DNA of 64,000 bases from Myxococcota bacterium (GCA_963674735.2 CAXXQS010000002.1:1568001-1632000), one strand, 5' to 3'; shown: positions 13,225 through 39,974, counted from the stretch's first letter. The notes: generated by a model not told the origin, from the letters alone. A program made the numbers and translations.

Positions 13225-13932
13225 ATGCGCACCGCATGGTTAAGCTTATTCGTGATTCTTATCCTCTGGTTCGGCTTTGCCGCCCTTGGCGCGGCTCAAG
13301 AGCCGGCCTCTGGCCGTGAAGCGCCGACTGCCGCAGTCGGTGACGACACGGGTGGGTTGGCCTCGGCCGACGAGGTGTACGATCTCAAGATGAAAGAGTT
13401 GGAAGAGAAGGTCAATCAGCTCAAAGAGAAGATCTTCCGCTCCAAAACGCGCTTGCTGCTTTTGCAGGAAACCATTCTGCATGGCGTGATCGCCGGTTCC
13501 AAAGCGGTGATTACCCATAAAAACGAGATGGGCGGGGCCTATCGGCTCGAAAGTGTGGCCTACTATCTCGATGGTGCGCCGATATTCGGAAAGATCGATA
13601 TCGACGGCGATTTGAGCGGCAAAGAGTCCATCGAGATCTATAACGGCACCATCCAGCCGGGCAAACACATGCTTTCGGTTTACATGGTTTACCGTGGAGA
13701 TTCCTCGGTTTTCGTCTATGTGGAGGGAATTCAGGTAAAACTGAAGAGCAGCTATACCTTCAAGGCGGAGGAAGGGAAGATTTCCCTGATCGATGTCGTC
13801 GGCTTCGACAAGGGCGGGGTGATGGCCAAGTTCGAGGATCGGCCCGCCGTGAAATACAACACTCGGTTTACCGATTTGCAGGAAAAAGACATTGAGTCGA
13901 CTTCGGGTGCGACCGACAAGACCGCTCCGTAG
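13225..13932 (+). CDS. Exported protein, coiled coil plus beta-rich domain; first gene of the glt-like operon
   Basis: Start at ATG 13225 behind AGGAGGAG; signal peptide; heptad region LKMKELEEKVNQLKEKIFRSKTRLLLLQE; beta-strand-rich C-terminus. Confidence 0.75.
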   Translation: MRTAWLSLFVILILWFGFAALGAAQEPASGREAPTAAVGDDTGGLASADEVYDLKMKELEEKVNQLKEKIFRSKTRLLLLQETILHGVIAGSKAVITHKNEMGGAYRLESVAYYLDGAPIFGKIDIDGDLSGKESIEIYNGTIQPGKHMLSVYMVYRGDSSVFVYVEGIQVKLKSSYTFKAEEGKISLIDVVGFDKGGVMAKFEDRPAVKYNTRFTDLQEKDIESTSGATDKTAP

Positions 13933-13965
13933 GCGGAGGGTCCGACGATAGCGGAGATTCCATTG

Positions 13966-16293
13966 ATGCCATACGCGCAGCTTCCGATGAGCCTCAGAGT
14001 GCTGACGGTGTTGCTCCTGTTTGCGGGGCTGGCCGCAGGCGGACGCGCCGAGGCGGCCGTAGGCGCCGTGGATGAAGATCTCTCGGGCGTCGAGCAACGT
14101 CTCACCGACCTGGATGCCAGCGTGGCCCAGTTGCGAGGACGTTATGTGCGAACCCTGGAACTGCGGGCCGAACGCGAGTTCCGCTCCCGTTTCGAACAGG
14201 CATTGTTTCTTTACAACGACGGCGACTTCGTACACGCCTCGATCATTTTCACCGATCTGCTCGATTATCCCGACGTGGAACGCCGCAGCGAATACAGCGA
14301 CGTCCTCTGGTATCTGGGCGACTCCTTTGCTCGCAACAAAAACTACATTTCGGCGCGCGAGTGGCTGGAAAAGGTGGTGGCCTTCGGACAGTCGACCCCC
14401 CATTTTCGCGATGCGCTGGTCCGTTTGATCGAAATCTCGGTGGAACTGGGCCGTTTTCAGGAAGCCGAAACCTACTACAACACGCTCAGTCGGGTGGAAG
14501 GCCCGGCGGGCTACGAGCTGATTCAGTATGCCTATGCCAAATCGCTGCATAAGAAGGGGCGTCTCGATCAGGCGTTGCGCGCCTTCCGGCAGGTGCCCGT
14601 CAACGGCGCCCAGCGGCCGGAAGCCGACTACTTCATCGGCGTCATTCTGGTGCAGAAAAACCAACTCGAAGAAGCCTTGGCGATTTTCGATGAGTTGTCC
14701 AAGCTCGACGCCGACAGCGAGCGGCGTGCCGATTTACGCGAATTGGCCATGCTGGCTTCCGCTCGTATCCGCTTCGAATTGGGCCGCTACGAAGAAGCCC
14801 TGAGCCTGTATCGCCAGATTCCGGTGGATTCGAAATTCTTCGATCAGGCTTATTACGAAATCTGCTGGATTCACATCAAACAGAAGAAGTACGCCGAGGC
14901 GGCCAATACCCTCGACATCATGCTGCTGGCTCTGCCGGATTCGGTTTACGCGCCCAACTCCCAGGTTTTAAAGGGAAATATCCGCCTGTGGGAGTCGCGC
15001 TGGGACGATGCCCAGTACAGCTTCCAGACCGTCATCAACAAGTATGCGAACGTGGTCGACACCATGGATGAACTGCTGGTGCAGACCACGGGCCAGCGCG
15101 CCGAAGAAATCCAGACGCGCTTGCTGAGCCAGGAGTCCACCCTGCCATCGGTGGTGATGTCCTGGCTGGAGCAGGAAGAGGACGTGGCGGAAGTGCTGGC
15201 GATGAAAGAAAATCTGAAGGGCGGCGAAGAGGATGCCGAGGAATCGGCCCGCATCGTCGACTCGTTGAAATTGCATCTGAGCCAGGAATCGAAGGCCAAT
15301 CTCTTTCCCCAGTTGAAGGAAGGCCGCGAGCGGGGCTTAGCCGTCAAAACCGAGCTGACCGAAGTTCGGGGCCGTTTGGTGAGCTTGAGCAACGACCTGG
15401 TGGGCGATCGGATTACCGATGCCCAGCGTGAACGGCTGGTCAAGGTGCAGGCGCGTCGCCGCGAACTGGAAGAGCTGTTCGCCACCATCCCGAAGACGGT
15501 TCAGGCGCGGCACGAACGCCGTCAGCGGCAGGTCGCCCGACTCGACGAGCTGGACAAACAGCTTTACGCCCTCACGCTGCAGCTCAAAGGGCTCGACGAG
15601 GTGCTGGCCGAAGTGGCGGCTCGTCATGAAAAACAAACCGGCGATCCCAATATGTCGGCCGATTATCTGGCCAAGGCCAAAGCGGAGATCAGGGCCGAGC
15701 GGGACGATCTGAAAGGGATGCTGCGTTACGTCGAAGGTGTCCAGCGGGATGTGTCGCGCGCCATCGAACGCACCAAGATCGGCGATGAATCCGCCGACCG
15801 CGACGAGCGCATCCAGCGCGAATTGGAGCGGGTGCAGGCCGAAGAGAAGACCTTGCTGGCGGCCATGCGCAACGCCATGGGCTCCGACGAACTGACGTTG
15901 TTCGAGCGTATCGAACTGGCCAAACAACATTCCGACCGTCTCAACCAGGATGTGGAAGTGTTTTTCCTCGATCTGGAAAACATGGTGGGCGACCGGGTGC
16001 AGGCCTTTGTGCGCAAGGTTGAAAAAGAAGAGCGCGATCTGGCGATCTATATGAAGGATCTGCGCGTTTACCAGGACGATTCGGAAAAACTGGCGGCCGA
16101 AATCGCCTACAACAACCTGCAAAGCGTGCGCGACCGTTTTTACGATATCGTGCTGAAAGCCAACGTCGGCTTGGTGGATATCGCTTGGGAAAAGCGCCAG
16201 ACGATCAAAGACAAGATCGACGGCATTCTCGATCAGCGTAGCGACGAGAAGGAACAGCTCAACGTGTCCTTCCGCGAACTGCGCGGGGAATAG
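13966..16293 (+). CDS. gltC: Periplasmic TPR/coiled-coil protein, GltC-like
   Basis: Signal peptide, N-terminal TPR repeats, long C-terminal coiled coil ending LKANVGLVDIAWEK; lies directly upstream of GltD/E/F-like genes. Confidence 0.68.
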   Translation: MPYAQLPMSLRVLTVLLLFAGLAAGGRAEAAVGAVDEDLSGVEQRLTDLDASVAQLRGRYVRTLELRAEREFRSRFEQALFLYNDGDFVHASIIFTDLLDYPDVERRSEYSDVLWYLGDSFARNKNYISAREWLEKVVAFGQSTPHFRDALVRLIEISVELGRFQEAETYYNTLSRVEGPAGYELIQYAYAKSLHKKGRLDQALRAFRQVPVNGAQRPEADYFIGVILVQKNQLEEALAIFDELSKLDADSERRADLRELAMLASARIRFELGRYEEALSLYRQIPVDSKFFDQAYYEICWIHIKQKKYAEAANTLDIMLLALPDSVYAPNSQVLKGNIRLWESRWDDAQYSFQTVINKYANVVDTMDELLVQTTGQRAEEIQTRLLSQESTLPSVVMSWLEQEEDVAEVLAMKENLKGGEEDAEESARIVDSLKLHLSQESKANLFPQLKEGRERGLAVKTELTEVRGRLVSLSNDLVGDRITDAQRERLVKVQARRRELEELFATIPKTVQARHERRQRQVARLDELDKQLYALTLQLKGLDEVLAEVAARHEKQTGDPNMSADYLAKAKAEIRAERDDLKGMLRYVEGVQRDVSRAIERTKIGDESADRDERIQRELERVQAEEKTLLAAMRNAMGSDELTLFERIELAKQHSDRLNQDVEVFFLDLENMVGDRVQAFVRKVEKEERDLAIYMKDLRVYQDDSEKLAAEIAYNNLQSVRDRFYDIVLKANVGLVDIAWEKRQTIKDKIDGILDQRSDEKEQLNVSFRELRGE

Positions 16294-16299
16294 TTTCGG

Positions 16300-19200
16300 A
16301 TGAAACCAATGCATGAGACATTCGGACGGCTGGGATGGGGGCTGTGGCTGCTGGCGGGATTGCTGGCTGCTTGGCCGGTGATGGCCCAGGACGCCCCGCC
16401 GGTTGCGGCGGAAGGTCCGGAGAAACTGGCCATCGAGCCGGGCGAAGCCCCGTTGACCGCCGAAGAAGTCAAGGAGGCGGTGCGCCGTTTCACCAGTCGC
16501 GTCGGCGAGTTTCAGCAGGACATCGGCGATATGGTGGACGATCAGTACGCCACCCGCGAGAAACAGATCGATTCGGCCTACGAAGAGGAACTCCAGGCGC
16601 TGGAAGGGAAGGAACTGGAAGCTATTCTGGCCGCGATCGAACGGCTGGAGCGCTTTCTCGCCTTGTATCCCGACGAACGCGAGTATTCGCCCGATGCCAT
16701 GTTCCGCCTGGCCGAATTGTACTTCCAGAAAGCCCGGCGCGAGTTCGATACCGTGCGCGAGGATGAGCTGGCCGAGTACGAACGCCGTCTGACCTTGTTC
16801 GACGAGGGGTTGCTCGACGACGAGCCCACCCCGCCCCATCCCGATTTCACCCGTTCGATTGCGCTGTATGAAGAGGTGGCCAACCGCTTCCCCGACTACC
16901 GCTACATCGATGCGGTCTATTACCTCATGGCGTACGCCTTCCAGGAACAGGGCAATTCGCCCATGGTGCGGCGCGCCTTCGAGGACATGATCGCCATCCG
17001 GCCCGACAGCGTTTACGTGGCGGAAGGGTATCTGCGTATCGGCGACGCCTATTTCAACGAATTGAATTACGAGCAGGCTCTCACGGCGCTGCAAAAAGCC
17101 TCGCAGTTCAAAGACTCGATCTTCTACGACCAGATTCTCTACAAATTGGCGTCCACCAATTTCATTCTGAATCGCTTCGACGAGGCGGTGCGCGCCTTTG
17201 CCGATCTGAACGACTATTCGGAAAAGGTGCTCAAGGAAAAAGGGCGGCATTCCTATTTCCGCGACGAATCGGTCAAGTACATCGCCTATTCCTACGCTCA
17301 GGGCGAAACTTACTGGGATAAGGCCGGAACTCAAAACGCCATCGCCTTTTTCGACCAGCTCGGCGATCGCCCCTGGGAAGCCGATGTCTTCCGCGATCTG
17401 GGCGATTATTTCGTGCAGCAGAGCAAATGGCTGGAGGCCGTCGCGTCCTACAAACGCGTGATCGCCAAGGATCCCTATAATGAGGCCAATCCCGAACTGC
17501 AAAACAAGATCATCCAGATCTACGCCTTCGGCCTGCGCGACGACGACAAGCAGAACGACGAACGGGAGCGTCTGATCGTCGATTACGGCGAAGGCAGCGA
17601 TTGGGCCATCCAGAACGCCGACAACCCCGACGCCGTGCGTGCGGCCGCCGAATTGTCGCTCAATTCGCTCAAGCAATGGGCCACAGCGCAGCACATTCAG
17701 GCGCAACGCTACCGGCAGATGGGCCGTGAAGCCGATGCCGCTACCTATTATGGTCGCTCGGCCAAGGCCTACCGCACCTTCCTTACGAAGTTCCCGCACG
17801 ATAAAGAGGCCTACGAACTCAATTTCCGGTTGGCCGAGGCGCTGTTCTTCTCGGGGAACTACCCGGATGCCGTGACGGAATACCTCAAGGTGCGCGACAG
17901 CAAGCTCAAGACCACCTACTTCCAGGACGCCGCCTACGCCGTGGTGCTGTGCTACGACAACCTGATTCGTCAAGAGGGCGAAGCCCTGACCGTCAGCGAG
18001 CAGGAAGCCCAGGCCCAACAGCGCGAGCGCCTGAAAGGGGAAACGGAAAAGACGCCCATCCCCGAGCTCAAGCAGAAGTATATCGAGGCGGGAGACTTTT
18101 ACGTCAATAACACCACCACGCCGCTCGACCAGGAGAAAATCGCCTGGAACTCGGCCGAGATCCTGTTCGAAAACAACCACCTCGAAGAGGCGCGCGACCG
18201 CTACATCGACATCGTCAACCGCTTCCCCAAAAGCGACATCAGCCCCAAGGCCGCCCGGCGCATCATCGATACCTACACGCTGGCGCAGGATTGGGTAAAG
18301 GTGACCGAGTGGTCGGAGAAGTTGGCGTCGCTGGAGATCGGTGGGACGGCGGAACGCGAACAGATGCGCGCCCAGTTGCGCGAGATTCGCGGAAACGCCA
18401 TGGCGCAGTTCGCTTCCGAACTGGAGGAACGCCAGGAATACGAGAAGGCGGCCGAGCAGTACCTCAAGGCCGTGGAACAGGATCAGACCTCGAAAGACGC
18501 CCCGGCCATGCTGTACAATGCTGCCGTCAATTACTCGCGTGCCAAGCGCCCGGCCAAGGCCATGTCGCTCTTCCAGCGTATGGTGGACGCTTACCCGCAG
18601 GCCGAGTTCGCCGCCGAGTCGCTCTACTTCGTGGCTGAAAACGCCTTCGATTCCTTCAATCTCGACCGAGCCTCCAAGGCTTATGCGCAGTTGTACACCA
18701 GTTATCCCGATATCGAGCCTCATCGCCGTTGTCTCTCGATCTACAATCACGCCCAACTCAAGGAATTCGATCACGAATACCGTGAAGCGGCGCGGATTTA
18801 CGAGAAATATTCCGTGGAGTGCGAAGCCATCGAGCAGGATGCCCCCATCATTCTGTTCCGCTCGGGCGAGTTGTTCGAGAAGCTGAAAGACTGGCGCAAC
18901 ATGACGCGCGTCTATCAGGACTTCATCGACCGTTTCGGCAATCAAACCGAGAACCATCGCTTCGCCGTACAGGCCTATTTCAAGATCGGTGAGGCCTACA
19001 GCGGCCAGAACCGCACGCGGGATGCCGTCCGGTATTACGAGCGCGCCATCGAATTTTTCCGTTCCCATCCCGGGCTCGAATCGGATTTCCTGGCCAACCA
19101 GATTGCGGGTCAATGCCAGTTTTTGCTGGTGGATCTGGAGTTCGACAAGTACAAGGCGGTTCGCATCGGCGGGCGCAGTCCCAAACAGATCGCCGATTCG

Positions 19201-19701
19201 TTCAACACCAAAGAATCGCGCATGTACGAAATCATCGAGCGCTACAAGCAGGTCAAAGACTTCAAGAGCCCCGAGTACTTCCTGGCGGCGAGTTACCGTA
19301 GCGCCCAGTCGGTCGTCATTTTCGCTGACGCGTTGTTCGATGCGCCGGTGCCGCGCGAGCTGAAGAAACTGGGTGAAGAATACGTGTTGGAATACCAGCA
19401 GCAGTTGTCCGACAGGGCCCGGCCCTTCTACGAGTTGGCCGCGAAAACCTACCTCGATGCCTTCGAGGAGGCCAAAACGGCCAAATTGTTCGGTTCGCCC
19501 TGGATGAAGCGGCTGATCGAAGCGCTCAATCATCCGAACCTGCAGACCTTGGTGGGCAGCGACGTGAAAATGCGCAAGCCCGAAAAGGTCCGCTTCAAGA
19601 AGCAGGTGCAGTCGCCCATGCCGCTGGACACGGGCAAGCCGCATGTACGCGTTAAACCGAAAGAAACGGAGCCGGCCGAGGCCACGGAGCAGGCGGGCTA
19701 A
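16300..19701 (+). CDS. gltD: Large periplasmic TPR protein, GltD (AgmU)-like
   Basis: 1133 aa, signal peptide, many TPRs (PDAMFRLAELYF, DAVYYLMAY, LRIGDAYF); C-terminal FADALFDAPVPRELK segment typical of GltD-type proteins; synteny. Confidence 0.78.
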   Translation: MKPMHETFGRLGWGLWLLAGLLAAWPVMAQDAPPVAAEGPEKLAIEPGEAPLTAEEVKEAVRRFTSRVGEFQQDIGDMVDDQYATREKQIDSAYEEELQALEGKELEAILAAIERLERFLALYPDEREYSPDAMFRLAELYFQKARREFDTVREDELAEYERRLTLFDEGLLDDEPTPPHPDFTRSIALYEEVANRFPDYRYIDAVYYLMAYAFQEQGNSPMVRRAFEDMIAIRPDSVYVAEGYLRIGDAYFNELNYEQALTALQKASQFKDSIFYDQILYKLASTNFILNRFDEAVRAFADLNDYSEKVLKEKGRHSYFRDESVKYIAYSYAQGETYWDKAGTQNAIAFFDQLGDRPWEADVFRDLGDYFVQQSKWLEAVASYKRVIAKDPYNEANPELQNKIIQIYAFGLRDDDKQNDERERLIVDYGEGSDWAIQNADNPDAVRAAAELSLNSLKQWATAQHIQAQRYRQMGREADAATYYGRSAKAYRTFLTKFPHDKEAYELNFRLAEALFFSGNYPDAVTEYLKVRDSKLKTTYFQDAAYAVVLCYDNLIRQEGEALTVSEQEAQAQQRERLKGETEKTPIPELKQKYIEAGDFYVNNTTTPLDQEKIAWNSAEILFENNHLEEARDRYIDIVNRFPKSDISPKAARRIIDTYTLAQDWVKVTEWSEKLASLEIGGTAEREQMRAQLREIRGNAMAQFASELEERQEYEKAAEQYLKAVEQDQTSKDAPAMLYNAAVNYSRAKRPAKAMSLFQRMVDAYPQAEFAAESLYFVAENAFDSFNLDRASKAYAQLYTSYPDIEPHRRCLSIYNHAQLKEFDHEYREAARIYEKYSVECEAIEQDAPIILFRSGELFEKLKDWRNMTRVYQDFIDRFGNQTENHRFAVQAYFKIGEAYSGQNRTRDAVRYYERAIEFFRSHPGLESDFLANQIAGQCQFLLVDLEFDKYKAVRIGGRSPKQIADSFNTKESRMYEIIERYKQVKDFKSPEYFLAASYRSAQSVVIFADALFDAPVPRELKKLGEEYVLEYQQQLSDRARPFYELAAKTYLDAFEEAKTAKLFGSPWMKRLIEALNHPNLQTLVGSDVKMRKPEKVRFKKQVQSPMPLDTGKPHVRVKPKETEPAEATEQAG

Positions 19702-19724
19702 ATAGAGGAGGCGGGGAGCGAATC

Positions 19725-21335
19725 GTGCCACCCGAGACAAGGCGACAAACAAAACGGGGTTCTATCGCGCTGGTATGGCTGCTGGTGCTGGCCATGGGAG
19801 CGCTGTCCTGCGCCGGTGACCGGCAGGCCGTCAAACCCGATCCGCAGCCGGTGAGCGAAATCGCCCCGGTGGTTCCCGAGGAAGACGTCGAGCCGGAACC
19901 GGAAGCCGTCGAGCCCGACGCGGCGGCGGCGGATGACGCGGCAAGCGGCGACGCGACCCCGGCGGAGAAACCGTATCCTTATGAAGCGAGTGCGCGCTGT
20001 CAAGCCGACTTGGAGCGCGGTGTCGAACTGGCGGACGAGAATCCCTCGCTGGCGGCGTCGTCGCTGCGTGAGGCTTTGCGCAAAGATCCGGCCTGCTACC
20101 AGGCCGAAAATAACCTGGGGCTGCTGGCCCTGCGCCAAGGCGACGTGTCGGCGGCCATGAGTCGCTTCGAAAGCGCCTTGAAACGGAAACCCGACTATCC
20201 GCAGGCGATCTACAACCGCGCCGTGGTCTTCATCAAGCAAGGCCGCCTCGATCGGGCGTTGGGATTCGTCAAGGCCAAGTTGAAGGAATATCCGGATAAT
20301 CCGGCCATCCGCTCTATCATGGCCCGTGTGCTGGTGCAGGGTGGCGAATATTCGCGGGCCATCGAGCAGGCCAAGCAGGTGCTCCAAAAGGATGAGCAGA
20401 ACACCTCGGCGATGCTGTCGCTGGGTTGGGCTTTCTATTACCAGGGCAAGCATGAACTGGCCGACATGGTATTTCGCAATATCCTGGCCATCGATCAGAG
20501 TATTGCCGAAGCCCATTACGGGCGCGCCATCATCGCCCAGAAGGAGAACCGCCCGGCCGAAGCGCAGCAGGCGTTTATCGATGCCATCCGTTTCCGCCCG
20601 GCTTTCCCCGAAGCGCTCAACAACCTCGGCATCTATTATCTCGACACCAAAGAATTCGATAAGGCATTGGAATTCTTCGAGAAAGCGATTAGTTACAGCC
20701 CCGATTTCGCCGAAGCCTACTTGAGCATGGGCGCGGCCTATGCGGGTTTGGGAAAAGAAAAGGAAGCCCTGGAGGCTTACGACAAAAGCGAAAAGCTGGA
20801 TCCCGGCTTGAAAGAGGTGAACTTCAACCGCGGGTTGGTTTATCTGCAAATCACGCCGCCGATGCCGGAAAATGCCTCTCCCGACCAGGAAATCGCCTGG
20901 CAGCAGGCGCATATCGAGCGTTTGGGAGTGGCCAAAGGCTATCTGGGCAAGTATCAGCAGTCAATGGGATCGCTGCCGGAGGACGATCCGACCGTCGGAT
21001 ACATTCAGGAAATCGAAACCTCGGTCAAGTCGGCCGAACGCACCATCAAGCGCATCAAGCGCCGCCAGGAACGCGCGGCCAAGCGGCGTGCACGGGATGC
21101 CGAGCGAAAAGCCGAGGAAGCGGCCGCGGCGGCAGCGGAAGCGGAAGCGGCGGCACCCCCGGCTGAACCCGAGGCGACCCCGGCCGTTGAACCGGAAACG
21201 GCGCCCGCGTCCGAAGCGGAAGCGACCCCCGAACCCGAGGCGGTTCCGGCGCCTGAACCGGAAGCGATCCCGGAGCCGGAAGCCGCTCCCAGTGAGCCTG
21301 AGGAGACCTTTGAATTACCCCCGTCCGTGGAATGA
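19725..21335 (+). CDS. gltE: TPR lipoprotein, GltE (AglT)-like
   Basis: GTG start behind GGGGAG; lipobox ALSC; tandem TPRs (AENNLG, AIYNRA, ALNNLG); charged coiled coil and Pro/Glu/Ala-rich tail; lies between gltD- and gltF-like genes. Confidence 0.75.
   Translation: MPPETRRQTKRGSIALVWLLVLAMGALSCAGDRQAVKPDPQPVSEIAPVVPEEDVEPEPEAVEPDAAAADDAASGDATPAEKPYPYEASARCQADLERGVELADENPSLAASSLREALRKDPACYQAENNLGLLALRQGDVSAAMSRFESALKRKPDYPQAIYNRAVVFIKQGRLDRALGFVKAKLKEYPDNPAIRSIMARVLVQGGEYSRAIEQAKQVLQKDEQNTSAMLSLGWAFYYQGKHELADMVFRNILAIDQSIAEAHYGRAIIAQKENRPAEAQQAFIDAIRFRPAFPEALNNLGIYYLDTKEFDKALEFFEKAISYSPDFAEAYLSMGAAYAGLGKEKEALEAYDKSEKLDPGLKEVNFNRGLVYLQITPPMPENASPDQEIAWQQAHIERLGVAKGYLGKYQQSMGSLPEDDPTVGYIQEIETSVKSAERTIKRIKRRQERAAKRRARDAERKAEEAAAAAAEAEAAAPPAEPEATPAVEPETAPASEAEATPEPEAVPAPEPEAIPEPEAAPSEPEETFELPPSVE
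21160..21305 (+). repeat. Low-complexity EPEA(T/V/I/A)P repeats in the GltE-like C-terminal tail
   Basis: Translation AEPEATPAVEPETAPASEAEATPEPEAVPAPEPEAIPEPEAAPSEPEE; degenerate gaacc(c/g)ga(a/g)gcg units in the DNA. Confidence 0.7.
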
Positions 21336-21456
21336 TAACAAACCAGGAAAGGGATAAAATCGTTGGAAATGAAAAGGCCTAGGTTATTAATATCGCAGGA
21401 AAAAAATAACTTGAAATCGTTCATGGATTAATATATGATCCAGGCCTTGATTTTCG

Positions 21457-21726
21457 ATGACACTAAAGATGAATAGAATCATTAAGAAAATTTACTGGTT
21501 AACTCTGGTTTTAGTCCTTTTAGGTGGGTTTTTAACTCCCGAGGACGCCGATGCGCGAAGGCAACGTCGCATCGTTTTCGAAGAAGGTACGGAGGTTCGC
21601 GGCAAGATCATTCGCCCGGAAATGTCGTTGATCCTCCAGCGCTCCAAGATCAATTACGATGCGTTGAAGTTGAAAGAAAGCTTTCTTCCGCGCATTATCC
21701 GATCAGTCAAACAGGAGCCCTTTTAG
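21457..21726 (+). CDS. gltF: Small exported protein, GltF (CglF)-like
   Basis: Signal peptide, then IVFEEGTEVRGKIIRPEMSLILQRSKINYDALKLKESFLPRIIRSVKQEPF, matching the GltF-family pattern; position after gltE. Start may be 21469. Confidence 0.72.
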   Translation: MTLKMNRIIKKIYWLTLVLVLLGGFLTPEDADARRQRRIVFEEGTEVRGKIIRPEMSLILQRSKINYDALKLKESFLPRIIRSVKQEPF

Positions 21727-21863
21727 GCGGTCAGCCAGCCGACATGTTGGAGAGGTGGGCCTCGCGGTGGAAAACACTACCCTAGGCTTGCGTAGGCATA
21801 TTTCGTGATATTGTTGATTTTACACAGTGTAGACGTCAACGTTTAAGGAGGAGGTTGTATAAG

Positions 21864-22508
21864 ATGGGCGCTATCCAGAAATTCATGGAAGAGGGCGGGC
21901 CGTTTATGTACATCATTGCCGCCGTGTCGGTCATTGCCCTGGCCATCATGGTGGAACGGTTTGTGTTCCTGTTCTTCCGCTTCAACATCAATGCCAATGC
22001 CTTCATGAGCCAGGTTCAGAAGCTGGTTATGGCCAACAACATCGACCGGGCCATCAAGCTTTGCAACGCGGCGGCCACCGCGGCGCTGCCGAAGGTCATC
22101 AAGGCCGGTCTGACCCGTGCCAACAAAGGTGAGATCGAGATTCACAACGCCATCGAAGAGGCGTCTCTCGAAGTGCTGCCGATGATCCAGAAGCGCACCA
22201 ATTCCCTGGTCAACCTGGCGCAGATCGCCACGTACCTGGGACTGCTGGGAACCATCTTCGGTATGATCCAGGCCTTCGAGGCGGTGGCTTCGGCTGCTCC
22301 GGAACAAAAAGCGACGGCTCTGGCCAGCGCCATTTCGATCGCCATGAACACCACGGCGCTCGGTCTGATGGTTGCGGTTCCCTGCATGGCCGTGCATCTG
22401 TTCCTGTCCAACGTGACCCAGAAGATCATCCAGGAGATCGATCAGTATTCCGTGAAACTGGAAAATCTGCTGGTGTCCCGCGGCAAAGGTTCGGCCCTGG
22501 AGGGCTAA
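21864..22508 (+). CDS. aglR: MotA/TolQ/ExbB proton-channel subunit, AglR-like
   Basis: Three TM helices; ATYLGLLGTIFGMIQAF and ISIAMNTTALGLMVAVP motifs; ATG 21864 behind GGAGGAGG. Confidence 0.9.
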   Translation: MGAIQKFMEEGGPFMYIIAAVSVIALAIMVERFVFLFFRFNINANAFMSQVQKLVMANNIDRAIKLCNAAATAALPKVIKAGLTRANKGEIEIHNAIEEASLEVLPMIQKRTNSLVNLAQIATYLGLLGTIFGMIQAFEAVASAAPEQKATALASAISIAMNTTALGLMVAVPCMAVHLFLSNVTQKIIQEIDQYSVKLENLLVSRGKGSALEG

Positions 22509-22542: not shown

Positions 22543-23244
22543 ATGGCGAGAACTGACAAGTACAAAAAGGTCGTTGATCAGGGTGAGGTCGATCTGGTTC
22601 CTTTCATGAACCTGCTGGCCATTCTGATTCCGGCTTTGATGATCTCTACCGAGTACATCAAAATCGCCACCATCGCCGTTGCTTCGCCACGGATCGGGCC
22701 GAAGGCCGAAGCGGTCCAGAAGCCTGACGAGAATCCGCCGTTGAACCTGAGCATCATGCTTAGCTCCAACGGAATGTACATCGCGTCCGCCAACAACGTG
22801 TTGCCTGGAGCGGAACAGGGTGCCACGGCCCAGCCCGGCCCCACGATTCCCAAGGTGAACGTAACCGTTTACCGGGCTCGCGATGTCAGCGGGAAGGTGA
22901 AGGAACTGGCCAGAGTGTGGAATTACAAAGGAAAAAAATTCAACCTGGGAGTACGAGAAATCGTCCAGGAGGATTTTTCCCATCGGCTTGAACTTCTCAA
23001 AGAGCAATACGGCTCGGTGCAGATGTCGGAGGAGTTGGACTTCAACTACCCGGCTCTAAACGAGAAGTTGCAAGTCATCAAGAAGGCGTTTAAGGACGAA
23101 AAACAGGTGATCATTTCGGCGGATCCGCAGATCCCGTTCAAAACGGTCATTCGTATTATGGATGCCTCTCGCTCGTTTACCAACGATGCCGGCGAAAAAG
23201 AGTTCCTCTTTCCGCAGGTGGTGTTGAGTGCGGGTGTTGTCTAA
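22543..23244 (+). CDS. aglQ: ExbD/TolR-family subunit, AglQ-like (Asn at the conserved Asp position)
   Basis: N-terminal TM DLVPFMNLLAILIPALM; C-terminal VIISADPQIPFKTVIRIMDASR...LFPQVVLS. Confidence 0.82.
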   Translation: MARTDKYKKVVDQGEVDLVPFMNLLAILIPALMISTEYIKIATIAVASPRIGPKAEAVQKPDENPPLNLSIMLSSNGMYIASANNVLPGAEQGATAQPGPTIPKVNVTVYRARDVSGKVKELARVWNYKGKKFNLGVREIVQEDFSHRLELLKEQYGSVQMSEELDFNYPALNEKLQVIKKAFKDEKQVIISADPQIPFKTVIRIMDASRSFTNDAGEKEFLFPQVVLSAGVV

Positions 23245-23317
23245 ACCTTCGTCTGCAGCCTTTTTTGGGACGGGTGTGAAAGCACCGGTTTCCGGGTAAC
23301 ATGAAGGAGTTGATCGC

Positions 23318-23917
23318 ATGAGCGACGCCAACAGCAAAAAAGCTTCGGTGAAGCAGATGACCCCGGAGGAGCTTGAGGCTCTCGAAGACGCGCACAAGGT
23401 GCAGAAGAAGCGTAAGGCCTCGGCCAAGCGCCATCGGAGCTCCGGTGCGCAATCGATGAGTATCACCTCCTTGATGGACATTATGACCATCCTCCTGGTG
23501 TTCATGCTCAAGAATTACGCTACCAATCCGATGAACGTCAATCCGTCGTCGGACCTGAATCTCGTGCAGTCGCTCGAAACCCAGGAAAATCACGTGCAGC
23601 TCACATCGCTGGCGATCACGGAGAAGCACATCCTGGTGGACGACAAACCGGTGGTCCAGGTTAAGGACGGTAAGGTATCGGCTACCGCCAAACGCGAGGG
23701 TGAAGATGGTTATTTCATCACGCCCTTGTTCGATGCCTTGCAGGAAGCGGCCGACCATCAGAAAAAGCTGTCTCAGTACAACGCGAATGTGAAGTTCACG
23801 GGCCGTATGCTGATCATCGGCGACGAAAAAGCGCCCTATCGTCTTCTCTCGGAAGTCTTGTACACTTCGGGACAAGCTGAGTTCAGCGAATTCGAGTTCG
23901 CCGTTATCAGGATGTAA
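23318..23917 (+). CDS. aglS: ExbD/TolR-family subunit, AglS-like
   Basis: MSITSLMDIMTILLVFMLKNY TM with conserved Asp; IIGDEKAPYRLLSEVLYTSGQAEF typical of AglS. Confidence 0.87.
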   Translation: MSDANSKKASVKQMTPEELEALEDAHKVQKKRKASAKRHRSSGAQSMSITSLMDIMTILLVFMLKNYATNPMNVNPSSDLNLVQSLETQENHVQLTSLAITEKHILVDDKPVVQVKDGKVSATAKREGEDGYFITPLFDALQEAADHQKKLSQYNANVKFTGRMLIIGDEKAPYRLLSEVLYTSGQAEFSEFEFAVIRM

Positions 23918-24140
23918 CGAAAACCATAATCGGTGGGCGGGTGTCTGTTTCCTGTAAAGGGGACAGATGCCCGCGGCCGGATATCTAGCGATGGGATAGT
24001 TTTAAACGCGGTTTTGGCTTGGTTCGAATTGCGAAAATTTGCCAAAGGCGCGCCTGTTGCTGACAGTCGTTTCGTTCATTAGGTCATGGAGAGTTGATAA
24101 GCTTCGTAATGAAGTTGAACCTATGGAAAGGAACGTTTGA

Positions 24141-25517
24141 ATGACCACGAAACAATCCGGAAAAATCCTACGGATTGGTGTTATCCAGGGTGGTCGGATC
24201 ATCGAGGAGCGTTTTTTTCGTAAACGGGAAACCATAACCGTCGGCGAATCTCCGCGATGCACGTTTATTCTTCCGTTTTCAGAATTACCCATTCCTAAGT
24301 TATATCCACTATTTGTTGTAAAAAACAACCGATACGAGCTCCAATATAACAAGGCCATATCCGGTAAGATTTCGGTGGGCAGCGATGTCGCCGATCTGGG
24401 CCAGCTCGCCTCCTCGGGTAAAGCGAAAAGCAAGGGCAATGCGTTCCTGGTTTCGCTTGATGATACCATGCGTGGCAAGGTGACCATAGGTGAGGTGACC
24501 ATTCTGTTCCAGTTCGTTCAGGCTCCGCCGCTACCGGCCAAGCCCAAGTTGCCCTCTTCCATTCGCGGTGGGTGGGTCAAGTCGATCGACTGGGTGTATG
24601 TTGGTGTTTTATTTACATCTTTTATCATGCATGCCGGTCTTTTCGGTTATGCTTCGACCTATCCCATCCCCAAAACAGTCGCGCTCGATATGGTGGCGGA
24701 ACGATTTGCGAAAATCATCGCGACCGATATGCCGAAGATGGAAAAAGAAGAGGTGACACTCGAGGGCGAAGGGGAAGGCGCGAAGAAAGAAGAAGACGCC
24801 AAGCCCAAGGGCGACAAGAAAAAAGAAGATGCCGGCAAAGCCAAGAAAGAGATGAGCGCCCAGGAGCGCGCTGAAGCGGCGGCACGGCGCAAGGCCGAAA
24901 TCGCCAAGAAAGTCGCCGGTGCCGGTTTGGTCGCCTTGCTGACCGCCAAAGGTCCCGCAGGGGAAGGTGGTATGGTGGCGCTGGCCGATACCCTGTCGGA
25001 GGGCGGTCGTTTCGGCAACATCGACGATATGATGCAGGGTGTGACTGGTCTGGGCATCGCGGAAAAAGCCACCGAGCGTGGACGACGCGGCGGTGGCGGC
25101 GGCGGTCCGGAAAGCAAAGAAATCAGCAATGTCGGTGTCGGCGAAGGCGGAAAGGCCGATCTGGCCGGGCGAGCGGAAAAAACCATCAAAGCTTCGGCCA
25201 GCCTCGGTTCGCTGGATGTCGATGGCGCGCTGGACAGCTCGGCTATCAAACGTGTGGTGAAGCGCAACCTGCCCTCCATCAAGCATTGCTACGAACAGGA
25301 ATTACGCCGCAATCCCAAGCTGGCCGGTAAAGTGACGGTCGAATTCACGGTGGCGGTTACCGGTGCGATTTCGGGCACCGAAGTGGTCTCCAGTTCGCTT
25401 AACAATCGCGCGGTCGAGGGCTGTATCGTCAAGACCATTCGCCGGTGGCGTTTCCCGAAACCTGAGGACGGCGACGTGATTATCACGTATCCCTTCATTT
25501 TCCAGGCCAGTCGCTGA
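24141..25517 (+). CDS. gltG: TonB-like energy transducer with AgmX/PglI C-terminal domain, GltG-like
   Basis: Cytoplasmic FHA-like beta domain, single TM with SFIMH (SxxxH), Lys/Glu- and Gly-rich periplasmic linker, TonB_C-like IKHCYEQELRRNPKLAGKV...RWRFPKP...YPFIF. Confidence 0.85.
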   Translation: MTTKQSGKILRIGVIQGGRIIEERFFRKRETITVGESPRCTFILPFSELPIPKLYPLFVVKNNRYELQYNKAISGKISVGSDVADLGQLASSGKAKSKGNAFLVSLDDTMRGKVTIGEVTILFQFVQAPPLPAKPKLPSSIRGGWVKSIDWVYVGVLFTSFIMHAGLFGYASTYPIPKTVALDMVAERFAKIIATDMPKMEKEEVTLEGEGEGAKKEEDAKPKGDKKKEDAGKAKKEMSAQERAEAAARRKAEIAKKVAGAGLVALLTAKGPAGEGGMVALADTLSEGGRFGNIDDMMQGVTGLGIAEKATERGRRGGGGGGPESKEISNVGVGEGGKADLAGRAEKTIKASASLGSLDVDGALDSSAIKRVVKRNLPSIKHCYEQELRRNPKLAGKVTVEFTVAVTGAISGTEVVSSSLNNRAVEGCIVKTIRRWRFPKPEDGDVIITYPFIFQASR

Positions 25518-25560
25518 CGGCTCGCAGATATACCCGATTTTCGGGTCTATGAAAAAAATC

Positions 25561-25599
25561 AAACGGAGTACCGAACTTTTAGCGGTGACTCCGTTTTTT
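25561..25599 (+). terminator. Rho-independent terminator after gltG
   Basis: aaacggagt-accg...cggt-g-actccgttt stem followed by a T run. Confidence 0.65.
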
Positions 25600-25850
25600 A
25601 TTGTAGAAAACACTAAAGATTTCGGCTCGTTTTGACGTTATGTATTTTAGATTGATCCAAACGTTCCGATAAGAACACCCATATATGGGTTGAGCAGGAA
25701 AGCGGCCCGGGTTGTGAGGAATCCGGATTTGCGCTCAATCGGAAAAAATGTGTGATTTTGGGTTGATAACTTTTTTAAGAGCGGCTACAATACGTATCTC
25801 GGTAATGAAAAGAGCGGGGTATGGCTTTGACCGCAGAAGGGGATTGCACC

Positions 25851-26465
25851 ATGAGAGCGTTTCAGCCTCGTATTGCCGTTGTGGCCATCGGAATCCTCAC
25901 GCTTTTATTGTTCTCGGCCGACCTGTTTGCTCAGTCGCGCGGAGCGTGTAAAGGCAAAGCAGACCAAACCATGGCCGATCTCGATAAATGGATCGGCGAG
26001 TACGAAGGCCAGATGTCCTCGGCTGAGCCGGTGCAGAAGGCGAAATACGAGGAATGGATCAACGAGCTTAAAAAACTGAAAACGCTGGTTGCTCAGGCCA
26101 AAGAAAAACTGGCCAACAAAGAGCAGTGCTCCAGCGAAGAGTGCGTGAAGGATCAGTGCAGTCTGGTTGATATCGCCGATCAGCAGGTCGCGCAGTTGAT
26201 CAAGGAAACGGAAGAACAACTGGGTTCCGGAACGCGCTTTGGTGAAGAAGGCGGGCGCGACGTGGTCAAAGATGCCGGTACCCTGGGCGATGATACGATG
26301 CTGGCCGGTACGGATCCTAACGACGCAGGGCAGCCGACGATCGGAGAAGAATCGGAGACTTCCGATAATCCGACGGATGGAGGCATCGGAAATGTGTTTC
26401 CCGATGCCGGAGTGGATTCCGGGCTTTCAACCGAGAATCCGAAAGATGAGGCGAGTGCCCAATAG
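25851..26465 (+). CDS. Exported helical protein with four Cys and an acidic disordered tail
   Basis: Start at ATG 25851; signal peptide; coiled-coil region; D/E/G-rich C-terminus; lies between gltG and the beta-barrel gene. Confidence 0.7.
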   Translation: MRAFQPRIAVVAIGILTLLLFSADLFAQSRGACKGKADQTMADLDKWIGEYEGQMSSAEPVQKAKYEEWINELKKLKTLVAQAKEKLANKEQCSSEECVKDQCSLVDIADQQVAQLIKETEEQLGSGTRFGEEGGRDVVKDAGTLGDDTMLAGTDPNDAGQPTIGEESETSDNPTDGGIGNVFPDAGVDSGLSTENPKDEASAQ

Positions 26466-26655
26466 CTGAAACGCTGGGGCTTTTCTCTGATTGATTGTTT
26501 ATCAGCGGATAACCGCTAACCGATAGTCGTCCCGTAGCTGTAAGGGCGGGGGTCGTTCTGGCAGACGTCAGAAGGCAAGCCGGTATTAATCGGTTTGCCG
26601 TTGTTTACGGCGTTGGTTTGGGTTTTCACTAATCCTTAGCGAGGGTTAGCTTCTT

Positions 26656-28107
26656 ATGCAGGGACATAAAACGTCAGCTTATCTGAGATTCTGGGCTTTG
26701 GTCTGTTTGTTTCTCATGGCCGCGCCGGCTGCCTGGGCACAACAGCAGACGGCAATGGAAGCGCAGGAAGTTTCGGCCGAACGTGAACGTGGGTTCAAGG
26801 TGGGTAAGCTGCGGCTGCATCCAGGCTTGAGCTTGCAAAACGTGTTCGACAGTAACGTTTCGAACGCTTCCGACCGCTACGACAATGCCGACTATCTGGC
26901 TCGCTATTTTCCTAGCGGGCGCGGGAATAACGGCCCACAGAGCAACTACGATGACGTGTTGCATATCGTGGGTGCCTTCAAGCTCGATTACCCGGACGAC
27001 ACCGTGGCGGTGACGCTGGATACTCAGCTCGGCTACGTGCGGTACTTCGGCATCGACAACAGTGACACCAGCAATCTTTCCAGCCTTTCAGCCTCGGGGC
27101 GCTTGACGGCCGATTTCTTCCGTGCTTCGGTGGTGGGTTTCACTCTTTCCGACACTTTCACCCGTTCCACCGACGTGCAGCAGGTGGGTTTGGCCGTGAC
27201 CAACGACCGGATTCACAACCGTGGACAAGCGCGCCTCAACATCCGTCCCGGCGGCGGGCAACTGCGCTTTTTCGTGGGTTACATCAACGATCTCGAAATA
27301 TACGACGATGATGCCCAGGCCAATCAGAACTGGCTGGAGCATACTTTCAACGCCGATTGGGAGCTTGAGTTCCTGCCCGAGACGGCGGTGTTCATGCGCA
27401 ACTCTTTTTCCATGCGCGATTATTACGACTTCGATGCCAACCGCGACGAAGATACCACGAATTCGGACTCGCCCGATGCCATGAGTCTGCGTATCACGGC
27501 CGGTATTTACGGTCGCATCGCGTCCTTTTTCCTGCTTAACCTCGCGGTCGGTTACGGCCGTTCCTTCTCGGATAATTTCGACGATTTCAACAGCGCGGTG
27601 GCCAAGGTCGAAGCGATTTTCCAGTTGGTCAGCCGAACCCAGTTCAAGGCCGGTTACGAACGCAGCTTCTCGCCGGTAACCACGTTTTCGTACCTAAACG
27701 AAGACAAATTGTACTTGGAGTTCCGTCAGTGGCTGTTCTCCGATGCCTTCAAGTTGTACCTGTACGGTGCGTATTCGTTCCTGAACTACGGCGGCACCGA
27801 TGCCGGAGTCGATGTGGACGATAACGCGGCCAACGTCTACTCGCTGGTCGACTTTCAGGCCGATGCCGGACTCGGCAAGCGTTCCGATCGTATGTTGTCG
27901 ACAACCGCCAGCCTGCGCTACGATTTCCTCGTCTGGCTGTGGATGGAACTTGGCTACAAGTTTACCTGGCGTGACACCGACTACTTCATCGAACGTATCA
28001 ATTCGGAGTTCGATCGCAACACGGATCCGAATCAGTTCTATGTCAGCGCGACCTATTACGATTTCATCAAGCACGAAGGATTTCTGAAGCTGACTTTCGC
28101 CTATTAG
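26656..28107 (+). CDS. Outer-membrane beta-barrel of a polysaccharide export system (Wzp/EpsX-like)
   Basis: Signal peptide; GFKVGKLRLHPGLSLQNVFDSNV start typical of polysaccharide-associated barrels; amphipathic beta-strands; BAM-type C-terminus LKLTFAY; directly upstream of wza. Confidence 0.78.
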   Translation: MQGHKTSAYLRFWALVCLFLMAAPAAWAQQQTAMEAQEVSAERERGFKVGKLRLHPGLSLQNVFDSNVSNASDRYDNADYLARYFPSGRGNNGPQSNYDDVLHIVGAFKLDYPDDTVAVTLDTQLGYVRYFGIDNSDTSNLSSLSASGRLTADFFRASVVGFTLSDTFTRSTDVQQVGLAVTNDRIHNRGQARLNIRPGGGQLRFFVGYINDLEIYDDDAQANQNWLEHTFNADWELEFLPETAVFMRNSFSMRDYYDFDANRDEDTTNSDSPDAMSLRITAGIYGRIASFFLLNLAVGYGRSFSDNFDDFNSAVAKVEAIFQLVSRTQFKAGYERSFSPVTTFSYLNEDKLYLEFRQWLFSDAFKLYLYGAYSFLNYGGTDAGVDVDDNAANVYSLVDFQADAGLGKRSDRMLSTTASLRYDFLVWLWMELGYKFTWRDTDYFIERINSEFDRNTDPNQFYVSATYYDFIKHEGFLKLTFAY

Positions 28108-28194
28108 CGCAGGATCGTCGGTATGACCTCCTTTCCGACCGCCCACCCGATCGTCATTCGGGAACGGACTGTGCCAATCCATTCAGGATGCCGT

Positions 28195-28824
28195 ATGAAC
28201 CGCTTGCCGTTACACACTGGTCTGTTGTTTGTTATGCTGGTGCTGATTCCGCTGATGGCCTCTTGCGTCTATGGCAAGAAAGCCCACACCCCGGCGCAGG
28301 GTCTGGCTGCCACTCCCCCCGATATTTTGAAGTCGGCCGCCACTTTGGGGCAGGATGACGTCTTCGAGGTGCGGGTGTTCGGCGAAAAAGAGCTGAGCAA
28401 TATCTATCGCATTTCGGATCGTGGAACCATCAGCTTTCCGCTCATCGGCGAAGTCAAGGTGGATGGCCTGACTCCCAGCCAGATCGAGGCGACCATCCAA
28501 AGCCGTCTGGAAAAAGATTTTCTGAATCAGGCTTTCGTTTCGGTTTTCGTCAAGGAATTCAATTCGAAGAAAATATTCGTGTTCGGCCAGGTTCAGAAGC
28601 CCGGCACTTTTCGCTATGAAGAAAACATGACGATCATCCAGGCCATTACGCTGGCAGGGGGATTTACCAAAACCGCCGGTAAAAACTCGGTTAGTGTCAC
28701 GCGGCTGGTCGAGCAGCAGGAACGGCGCATCGATGTCGAGATCGAACAGATTTGGAAAGGAAAAGCTCCCAACCTGGTTTTGCAGGCGGGAGATATCATT
28801 TTCATTCCCGAGACCCTGTTCTAG
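28195..28824 (+). CDS. wza: OPX polysaccharide export lipoprotein, short form lacking the C-terminal OM helix
   Basis: Lipobox LMASC; PES motif (GTISFPLIGEVKVDGLT); one SLBB domain (FVFGQVQKPG...AITLAGGFT); ends GDIIFIPETLF. Confidence 0.9.
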   Translation: MNRLPLHTGLLFVMLVLIPLMASCVYGKKAHTPAQGLAATPPDILKSAATLGQDDVFEVRVFGEKELSNIYRISDRGTISFPLIGEVKVDGLTPSQIEATIQSRLEKDFLNQAFVSVFVKEFNSKKIFVFGQVQKPGTFRYEENMTIIQAITLAGGFTKTAGKNSVSVTRLVEQQERRIDVEIEQIWKGKAPNLVLQAGDIIFIPETLF

Positions 28825-28916
28825 CACTTATTGAAGATGCATGGGCCGGTGGTCTGTACGGGACGCGTTTTTCATGCTGACTATCTTGTCGTTGAAGCGC
28901 TATCGAGGCGCGTTAT

Positions 28917-31142
28917 GTGAGTGAGATTGTGGACCAGACAACCATCGAAACCAGCCAGAAGCCCCTTTCCGAAGCGATGAACGTGACCGATTACACCCGC
29001 GCCATTCTGAAGCGGAAATGGCTGGGGGTGCTGATCTTCATCGGGGTGGTGTTTTTCACTTTTCTGTTCACCATCCGCCAGCCTAAAATCTACGAAGCGG
29101 TCGCCACGATCGAGATCGATCTGCAAGCCGACCGGGTGCTGTCGGATGTCAGCGAAGTCTACCAGCTCGGCGATGTTTCCTATTGGGACAGCAAATCCTA
29201 CTTCGAAACCCAGTACAAGATCATCCAGTCGCACTCCGTGGCAAAACTCGTGGTGGATCGCCTGCATCTCGACCGCGATTTGGTGTTTCTCGGGCTGGAT
29301 AAGCTGGAGGACGAGGCTGAGCTGACCGAACGTCTCGCAGCCGCCGATGCGGCCCGTATCGTGCAAGATAACCTGTTTGTGGACCCGGTATACGAAAGCC
29401 GCCTGGTGCGTATCCGTTACAGCGGGACCGATCCTCTGATGGCGGCCACCATTGCCAACGCCATTGCCAATGCCTACATCGATCAGAACCTGGACCGCAA
29501 GTTGTCGTCCACCCGCAGCGCCATCAATTGGCTGACCGAGCAGATGCAGGATCTCAAGACGCGTCTGGAAGTTTCGGAACGCGCCGTGTACGAGTTCAAG
29601 CAAGAGCACGATATTCTGTCGACCAGCATGGACGAGCGCGTCAATATCATCGGCAGCCAGTTGAATTACCTCGATGCCGAGTATACCAAGGCGCGCACGG
29701 AACTGATGCATGCCGAATCGCGTTACGACTCCATCCGTCGGGCGCTGAAACAGTCGGATGCGGAAAATGTGGCGTCTGCCGACATTCTTTCCAATCCGCT
29801 GATCAAGGAACTGAAAGTCACCTACGCCAAGTTGCAGAACGATTATTCCGAGCTGCTCGAACGCTATAAAGACAAGCACCCGAAGGTGTTGCTGGTGCAG
29901 AGCAAGCTCGAAAAAACACGGTCCAATCTGCGCCGCGAGATTCGGATTATCGCCGAATCGTTGAAGGCCGAATTCCTGAGCGCTCGCAGCGCGGTGGATC
30001 AGATTGCGGCGGAATTGGAGCGGGTGAAAGGACAGATGCGCAACCTGACGGTAAAGGAACTCGAATACAACCGTCTGATGCGGGAGAAAGAAAGCAACCA
30101 GCGCGTGTTCGAGCAGGTGTTGTTGCGTCTCAAAGAGATCGATCTTTCCGGGATGCTGAAAGTCAATAATATCCGTCTGTTGGATGAGGCCAAGACCCCC
30201 GAATTCGCGATCCGGCCGCGGGTGAAGCTGAACCTGATCATCGGGATTCTGTTCGGTTTGGTGTTGAGCCTGGCCACGGTGATCATTCTCGATCTGCTCG
30301 ATAAAACCCTGAAAAGCGCGGAAGACATTCAACGTTTCCTGAAACTGCCGCTTCTGGGCATCATTCCACAGGTCAAGCCGGAGCCCGAACTGTTGGTCGG
30401 AGGACGAATGAACGCCGCCGACATGTACTCGCACCTGCGACCCAAGTCGTCCATGGCCGAATGTATCCGCACGATTCGCACCAACATCAGCTTCATGTCG
30501 CCCGGCAAGCCCATTACCAAGATTCTGGTGACCTCGGCGTCGCCCAAGGAAGGGAAGACCACCATCGCGTCCAACTTGGGGATTTCGTTGTCGAATTCCG
30601 GGTTGCGGGTCTTGGTGCTCGATACCGACATGCGTCGCCCGCGCCTGCATAAGGCCATGGGCATGCATAACGAATACGGGCTGTCGAACGTGATCATGGG
30701 GACCATGACCATCGAGGAAGCGGTTCGCGATTCGGAGGTGGAGAATCTGTTCGTGATGACCTGCGGACCTATTCCGCCGAATCCGGCGGAGCTGATCGGA
30801 TCGGATGAATTCGCGGCGGTGGTCAGCGATCTGGCGAGCCGCTACGATCGTCTGATCTTCGATTCGCCGCCGGTGATCGCCGTCACCGATGCCATGGTGC
30901 TGACCCGCCTGGTGGATGGGGTGATTCTGGTCGTGAAGTGCGGCAAGACCCTGCGCGATGTGGCGCTCCAGGCCAAGAAGCAGCTGATGGATGTCAAGGC
31001 GCGGGTTTTGGGCTCTATCATCAACGACCTGGATCTCGATAATAAGGAATACGGCAGCTATTACTATTATTATTACCACCGCTACGGCTATTACTACGGC
31101 GAAAAGGAAGAGCAAACGAAAGCCGATTCCACCCAAGCCTGA
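28917..31142 (+). CDS. wzc: Polysaccharide co-polymerase with fused BY-kinase
   Basis: Two TMs flanking a coiled-coil periplasmic domain; Walker A SPKEGKTT, A' DTDMRRP, Walker B IFDSPP; C-terminal Tyr cluster. Confidence 0.94.
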   Translation: MSEIVDQTTIETSQKPLSEAMNVTDYTRAILKRKWLGVLIFIGVVFFTFLFTIRQPKIYEAVATIEIDLQADRVLSDVSEVYQLGDVSYWDSKSYFETQYKIIQSHSVAKLVVDRLHLDRDLVFLGLDKLEDEAELTERLAAADAARIVQDNLFVDPVYESRLVRIRYSGTDPLMAATIANAIANAYIDQNLDRKLSSTRSAINWLTEQMQDLKTRLEVSERAVYEFKQEHDILSTSMDERVNIIGSQLNYLDAEYTKARTELMHAESRYDSIRRALKQSDAENVASADILSNPLIKELKVTYAKLQNDYSELLERYKDKHPKVLLVQSKLEKTRSNLRREIRIIAESLKAEFLSARSAVDQIAAELERVKGQMRNLTVKELEYNRLMREKESNQRVFEQVLLRLKEIDLSGMLKVNNIRLLDEAKTPEFAIRPRVKLNLIIGILFGLVLSLATVIILDLLDKTLKSAEDIQRFLKLPLLGIIPQVKPEPELLVGGRMNAADMYSHLRPKSSMAECIRTIRTNISFMSPGKPITKILVTSASPKEGKTTIASNLGISLSNSGLRVLVLDTDMRRPRLHKAMGMHNEYGLSNVIMGTMTIEEAVRDSEVENLFVMTCGPIPPNPAELIGSDEFAAVVSDLASRYDRLIFDSPPVIAVTDAMVLTRLVDGVILVVKCGKTLRDVALQAKKQLMDVKARVLGSIINDLDLDNKEYGSYYYYYYHRYGYYYGEKEEQTKADSTQA

Positions 31143-39962: not shown

Positions 39963-39974
39963 GGAGTTCCGAGC

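Follow-up and report, generated by a model that had tools for sequence, protein, structure and literature searches.

The 64,000-nucleotide stretch of a Myxococcota bacterium genome examined here (GCA_963674735.2, CAXXQS010000002.1:1568001-1632000; hereafter the window) carries 13 consecutive open reading frames (ORFs), all on the + strand between positions 13225 and 31142, in which an Agl-Glt-type proton motor and its scaffold run into a polysaccharide exporter. The initial annotation had listed these 13 genes, and ORF, Pfam and NCBIfam analysis confirmed that all of them (13/13) are real. Their order is X1, gltC, gltD, gltE, gltF, aglR, aglQ, aglS, gltG, X2, barrel (wzp), OPX (wza) and wzc. 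Judging from sequence, all parts of the machine are present and the link between the Glt genes and the barrel is conserved. Gaps measure 30, 6 and 23 bp between X1, gltC, gltD and gltE and 15 and 92 bp between wzp, wza and wzc, the widest in the locus being the 333 bp between gltG and X2.

Genes of the locus and their counterparts

X1 (13225..13932) is predicted to be secreted and to combine a coiled coil with a transthyretin-like beta-sandwich. It had no Pfam or NCBIfam match, a fold search returned common beta-sandwiches alone (best Z 9.5), which implies no function, and in the ESM Atlas X1 and one X2 homologue each fall in unnamed Myxococcota clusters. A GltC-like periplasmic TPR protein of 776 aa (13963..16293) and a GltD-like TPR scaffold of 1133 aa (16300..19701) were assigned from domain profiles and from their size relative to MXAN_1923 and MXAN_1922 of Myxococcus xanthus. 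They are followed by a GltE-like TPR lipoprotein of 536 aa with the lipobox ALSC (19725..21335; NF033758, E 1e-38, under the cut-off) and by a small secreted GltF-like protein of 85-89 aa (21457..21726, starting at 21457 or 21469); its profile matches the genome's CglF-like protein at 27 bits, and the ORF had no direct match to NF033764. The motor genes aglR (21864..22508), aglQ (22543..23244) and aglS (23318..23917) lead to a short GltG of 458 aa (24141..25517), consisting of a cytoplasmic domain, a transmembrane helix and a TonB_C domain without an N-terminal FHA domain. NCBIfam scores were all under the cut-offs (56 of 450 bits for gliding_GltC, 133 of 225 for GltE and 189 of 650 for GltG). 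The GltE and GltG models were the top matches of their own proteins, the 776-aa protein scored YbgF above GltC, and no genome in the samples checked reached the cut-off for gliding GltG.

The exporter half begins with X2 (25821..26465, likely start 25851), a predicted secreted helical protein. The next gene encodes an outer membrane beta-barrel of the WzpB type (26656..28107), predicted to be 18-stranded and plug-less: the AlphaFold2 model (pLDDT 79.7) has 18 long strands as counted from DSSP and no plug, its best folds are outer membrane porins including AlgE (Z 19.2, rmsd 4.0, 305 aligned), and Foldseek returned generic barrels only. Homologues of the barrel are present in Myxococcaceae metagenome-assembled genomes. 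The OPX protein (28123..28824, likely start 28195) is a class-3 lipoprotein of the WzaB type that has Poly_export and SLBB domains but lacks a C-terminal outer membrane helix; its best PDB match is 9N9A, which is M. xanthus WzaB (E 2.6e-48, aligned through the last residue), and it has the invariant Cys and a C-terminus in register with that of WzaB. Domain profiles identify the final gene as a Wzc that carries a fused BY-kinase and a Tyr cluster (28917..31142; PCP-2A, as WzcB). Genes for wzx, wzy and glycosyltransferases are absent at the locus, and Wzy_C and flippase family matches were found elsewhere in the genome. A second wza-wzc pair, accompanied by sugar transferase and glycosyltransferase-like genes, lies at L002:7100-20000 (G000 C2:87-101 kb), with a Wzy_C match nearby at C2:114251.

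A sigma-70-like promoter match (TTGACA, 17 nt, TATAA) was found upstream of X1 (13097..13124, + strand) by consensus alone; the pattern matches once in the window and in 0 of 100 shuffles, having been picked after the site was seen. The terminator that the initial annotation placed between the two halves was also recovered, as a hairpin between A and U runs (25560..25600, + strand) with a folding energy of -20.5 kcal/mol (z -4.8), which none of 200 shuffles equalled. Since this hairpin and then a promoter-like site (25763-25791, from a scan whose total counts were about at shuffle level) lie in the gap between gltG and X2, X2, barrel, wza and wzc probably form their own transcript.

Among the M. 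xanthus paralogue clusters listed by Luciano et al. (2011; PMC3169522) is G4 (MXAN_1919-1923), to which no function was assigned, and wzpB and wzaB are MXAN_1916 and MXAN_1915 (PMC9603273), three and four genes past gltG by locus tag. This is the wza/porin pair beside a Glt paralogue that the initial annotation had mentioned. The G4 genes stand in the same order, with sizes of 809/1111/490/91/447 aa as against 776/1133/536/89/458 aa in the window. Because order and size match gene for gene and wzpB and wzaB occupy this position, we identify the locus, by synteny, size and WzaB similarity, as the G4 counterpart joined to an exporter of the biosurfactant polysaccharide (BPS) type, WzpB-WzaB-WzcB. 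The window differs from M. xanthus G4 in its in-cluster motor and wzc, whereas the motors and wzcB of M. xanthus lie elsewhere.

Three other known systems resemble the locus in part. The seven-gene Agl-Glt core with the motor inside it was already described in 2011 (PMC3169522), and its gltC, D, E, G and aglR, Q, S genes form a single run in the window too, ordered as listed for Geobacter and gammaproteobacteria, with X1, X2, the barrel, OPX and Wzc in addition; the text and supplements of that paper, as far as they were accessible, describe no exporter link to the core. The Agl-Nfs system, which moves spore-coat polymer (PMC3858216), offers a working analogy, as a motor driven by proton motive force (PMF) and a Glt-like transducer act there on a polymer exported through a Wza-type route. 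Nfs, however, has its own GltA/B/H-type barrels, an FHA-type GltG and a distant, borrowed motor, while the window has no such barrels and has an adjacent exporter. The class-3 translocon WzcB-WzaB-WzpB shares the short lipidated OPX, the 18-stranded barrel and the fused PCP-2A kinase; a term search of the accessible text of PMC9603273, PMC9601211 and PMC12819527 found neither a Glt or TonB link to the exporter nor an X2-like gene.

With neither a long FHA-type GltG nor GltA/B/H barrels, the window cluster falls outside gliding Glt (G1/G2) and Nfs. In a quick, midpoint-rooted GltG tree of 55 rows, a branch with 99% SH-aLRT support divided 26 G4-type and 6 Fibrobacterota sequences from 23 long or other GltG. 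The short GltG of the window thereby separates from the long FHA-type forms, and does not group with the true gliding paralogues.

The literature searched, which did not cover a 2015 study by Agrebi, contained no description of a link between G4 and an exporter and no paper naming MXAN_1917-1921 or MXAN_1923 in its main text; MXAN_1915-1924 are likewise not discussed in the accessible main text of a transposon preprint (10.64898/2026.08.28.747804). The parts and the motor-in-core layout are already known, then, and the exporter linkage is what the literature searched did not show. The title of the 2015 study reportedly argues for an ancestral capsule-related role of the machinery. That the system is undescribed, as the initial annotation suggested it might be, is not supported as worded, given the core complex of 2011 and this thesis.

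Conservation of the link between Glt and the export barrel

We surveyed 71 genomes of the phylum, 70 of them at least 99% complete plus the window's own. X1, a mostly single-copy marker of G4-type clusters, was found in 63 of the 71, as was the barrel (63/71); 62 genomes have both and 7 neither, and presence or absence of the two agrees in 69/71. Linkage was scored by hand comparison of coordinates. Glt and barrel are linked in 53 of the 62 genomes that have both markers, unlinked in 7 and undecidable in 2, and the Glt-exporter linkage seen in the window is thus kept throughout the phylum. X1 and the barrel share a contig and strand, about 10-16 kb apart, in 43 of the 62; where they fall on different contigs (18 genomes), gltG adjoins the barrel in 10, no gltG lies upstream in 6, and 2 are undecidable.

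Other links in the same sample are looser. Wza and Wzc lie within 6 kb of each other in 14 of the 48 genomes with both, a possible undercount as contig breaks were unchecked, and the cluster contains an AglR in 20 of 62 (21 counting G085, in which a contig end cuts the cluster). Among the 53 linked loci, 43 have an OPX gene after the barrel and 8 have none there, while 2 stop at a contig edge; the 8 are rearranged genomes that retain Glt and barrel without an adjacent OPX. At one locus (L111, genome G105), wzc lies upstream and wza downstream of the Glt cluster, and X2 and the barrel sit elsewhere. When 35 loci (24 from close relatives) were chosen by AglR alone, 21 ran past gltG, and these contained the barrel in 21/21 (19 found with the single window protein as query) and wza in 20/21.

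The arrangement extends to a second phylum. Of 13 Fibrobacterota loci with aglR-Q-S-gltG, 10 lead straight into an OPX of about 300 aa, the longer type, and wzc, while 11 further Fibrobacterota AglR loci lack an aglR-Q-S-gltG cluster. The barrel profile had no match in five Fibrobacterota genomes, which were incomplete and searched with no positive control. It is possible that the Fibrobacterota and G4-type clusters may be one inherited cassette.

In most linked loci X2, at about 200 aa, separates gltG from the barrel; it was undetected in two (L107 and L110). The window's X2 subtype is homologous to the main X2 family (probability 97.7). In 13 fetched loci where gltG and the barrel are apart, a profile trained solely on Glt-linked loci found X2 directly 5' of the barrel 12 times, two of these matches being weak (25 and 54 bits) and three of the 12 loci also lacking wza; the sole miss was a second barrel copy (L091). 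Since X2 stays with detached barrels, it is best read as a barrel companion. In two genomes the barrel match came in two pieces (G065 C7:447827-448694 and G099 C1:382868-384164), through a frameshift, a broken gene or an assembly error. A complex prediction of the GltG TonB_C domain with the barrel and X2 scored 0.00 without controls and is evidence neither way.

The outer flanks of the locus change. Upstream of X1 and divergent from it, the window has genes on the - strand (7063-12891) for a sulfatase, a beta-lactamase-like/Mur ligase fusion and an S66 LD-carboxypeptidase, and the S66 neighbour recurs in only 3 of 29 X1 loci (L007, L063 and L080), many of which have less than 1.5 kb of upstream sequence. 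Further downstream (39100-43500), a gene run resembles NADH dehydrogenase subunits, as judged by eye from N-termini.

The motor and the second Glt cluster

The AglR-family subunit is of the MotA/ExbB type (PF01618, E 7e-23) and keeps Thr130, Thr164 and Pro173, which are invariant. The two other subunits are ExbD-like (PF02472): AglS retains Asp54, and AglQ has Asn23 at the conserved channel-Asp site, the column of Asp25 in PDB ExbD, whose equivalence to M. xanthus Asp28 is inferred. At this column, the first ExbD subunit of cluster-type motors has Asn in 29 cases, Ser in 5 and Ala in 1 (35/35 non-Asp), and the second has Asp in 35/35. Separate motors, labelled M1-like (after AglRQS) or M2-like (after MXAN_3003-5) from gene layout and an AglQ motif, have Asp in 11/11 of the first subunits read, with one not found. 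Motors of Fibrobacterota, and second motors belonging to other families, likewise have Asn at the AglQ site, so this residue is not specific to exporter-linked clusters; no description of an Asn-type AglQ was found in the literature searched. As an Asn-type AglQ is widely retained together with intact AglR channel residues, the pattern suggests a working heterodimer with one aspartate, supplied by AglS, though it may instead be a non-conducting scaffold.

In the AglR tree, which holds no M. xanthus sequence, 38 cluster-type AglR lie on one side of a branch (87/94), apart from the sets labelled M1-like and M2-like. We had considered the motor an M2 orthologue on the strength of consecutive Plesiocystis accessions (EDM80280-86; Luciano et al., Fig S4), and dropped this reading because neither the tree nor the Asp pattern supports it and accession numbers can run in sequence for genes that are not adjacent. 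The closest relatives of AglR come from Myxococcota/Myxococcales; a plasmid search with AglR returned distant ExbB-like matches only and no gammaproteobacterial core. Other motor arrangements were also seen: two near-identical aglR copies flanking aglQ-aglS-gltG (L012:6166-10645), two Agl-type motors back to back and away from any Glt cluster in many genomes (L122-L125), and stand-alone Agl motors in Fibrobacterota (L036, L039, L146, L147, L149) behind a gene weakly similar to the OPX profile, 566-589 aa where complete.

The window's motor is the only AglR-type motor in its genome (E 7e-107; next match 4e-36). A second, motor-less Glt cluster (L001:3786-14640; G000 C2:1940785-1951639) encodes a GltA-like barrel, GltC, D, E, CglF, an FHA-type GltG and CglE/GltH, contains the genome's only TIGR04565 match, and scores nearer the gliding models than the window for GltC, F and G; the two GltD-like proteins share 22% identity over 1005 aa. 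Because this cluster lacks a motor and the genome has no other of the AglR type, the motor is probably shared between the two. The proposal that the locus is self-contained is therefore not supported. The statement that gliding-specific subunits are missing holds within the window and fails for the genome, where GltA-like, CglF, CglE/GltH, GltI-like and GltJ-like genes occur elsewhere; CglB had no match in the genome, in a search with no positive control. Two further loci, G000 C2:513361-527202 and C2:2340870-2342780 (L006, L005), encode a 4077-aa TPR protein that is GltI-like by size, next to a zinc-ribbon/GYF protein, and a second GltJ-like protein, which has TonB_C; a VIT/vWA protein lies directly 5' of a third, short GltG-like gene (L003:4176-8537).

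A possible role in polysaccharide export

We favour, with a probability of roughly 0.55, the reading that the G4-type Agl-Glt machine is a PMF-driven accessory acting on the BPS-type export pore or its polymer. In an AlphaFold model of the gliding machine, the TonB domain of GltG contacts GltD and a strand of GltF, while GltC holds the N-termini of porins (PMC11761067). By analogy, AglR5-Q-S would use proton flow and pass force through GltG to GltF, GltD and GltC, and GltC would grip the N-terminal tails of outer membrane barrels. As the cluster has no GltA/B/H, the Wzp barrel would be the natural and likeliest target, directly or via X1 or X2. Wzc-Wza-Wzp would do the export proper, and the motor-Glt arm would gate, clear, position or move the pore or its polymer, with a motor that would run on the single channel aspartate of AglS and serve the second Glt cluster as well.

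Several observations weigh against this. The barrel lies apart from Glt in seven genomes, including G067, whose genome is closed; roughly two in three linked clusters lack a motor in cis, and wza does not follow gltG at a Fibrobacter-sized core locus (L156). The hairpin and promoter-like site divide gltG from X2. The genomes surveyed are related to one another, neighbouring genes may disappear together, and GltG from Fibrobacterota fall inside the G4 type; because of this kinship and nesting the linkage counts are not independent events. The window AglQ has Asn where the D28N substitution abolishes the M. xanthus motor (PMC3858216). A polar insertion in MXAN_1922, assayed on hard and soft agar, and a deletion of MXAN_3004 left M. 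xanthus motility unaffected (PMC3169522), a qualitative G4 result that predates the discovery of BPS and concerns a species with no motor within its G4 cluster. Unlike the G4 mutant, M. xanthus wzaB mutants swarm poorly (PMC7310880), and the WzcB-WzaB-WzpB model, in which Wza and Wzc bind each other, explains export without a motor (PMC12819527). Since the G4 mutant moves normally, wzaB mutants do not and the translocon model is motor-free, we propose an accessory rather than an essential role in export.

In the strongest competing explanation, the Glt core and the X2-wzp-wza-wzc exporter are two units that have long been neighbours and are not physically coupled, history or common regulation having held them side by side. 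The hairpin and promoter-like site that divide the locus, the way X2 tracks the barrel rather than Glt, the G4 mutant without a reported motility defect and the seven unlinked genomes are all in its favour. However, the link between Glt and barrel outlasts both the Wza-Wzc and the Glt-motor links in the same genomes, which counts against mere neighbours, and the link is also kept in a second phylum, whose OPX is of another type, while the outer flanking genes change, so we consider this explanation unlikely. It is less probable still that the barrel is the outer membrane anchor of a G4 machine with some other job (envelope upkeep, adhesion or Tol-Pal-like barrel assembly), with the exporter sharing only the pore. 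This would suit a cluster with no other outer membrane barrel, the eight genomes that retain gltG and barrel without an adjoining OPX and the three that keep X2 and the barrel alone, but most linked loci do have an OPX after the barrel, and in the five incomplete Fibrobacterota genomes with no barrel match, obtained without a positive control, Glt nevertheless runs into wza-wzc. Least probable is that a gliding- or Nfs-type machine encoded elsewhere is the main user of the motor, the G4 proteins and the polymer being accessory (slime or adhesion), for although this is the sole AglR-type motor in a genome with an FHA-GltG cluster and GltA-, CglE/GltH-, GltI- and GltJ-like genes, and M. xanthus Glt and Nfs share one motor (PMC3858216), it leaves the Glt-barrel linkage unexplained where the motor has left, and the genome gave no CglB match (no positive control) and has a motor from a clade distinct from M1-like motors.

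Going beyond the accessory reading, it is conceivable, although we hold it only tentatively and think it doubtful, that G4-type Glt represents the ancestral Agl-Glt: a TonB-like, one-aspartate motor with a TPR scaffold acting on a polysaccharide export barrel and X2, providing an energised outer membrane step in Wzx/Wzy export. The gliding and spore-coat machines would then derive from it, with GltA/B/H replacing the export barrel.

Since 2011 it has been an open question what the Agl-Glt core and M. xanthus G4 do, and a conserved link to a BPS-type pore suggests, but does not prove, a job for them, one that can be tested directly in a tractable organism. Two narrower predictions can be tested as well, that X2 is a missing fourth part of the WzpB translocon and that a single channel aspartate suffices for a broad clade of Agl motors. 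If the coupling is true, Wzx/Wzy export would have a PMF-driven step at the outer membrane, and the evolution of gliding would gain a concrete starting point.

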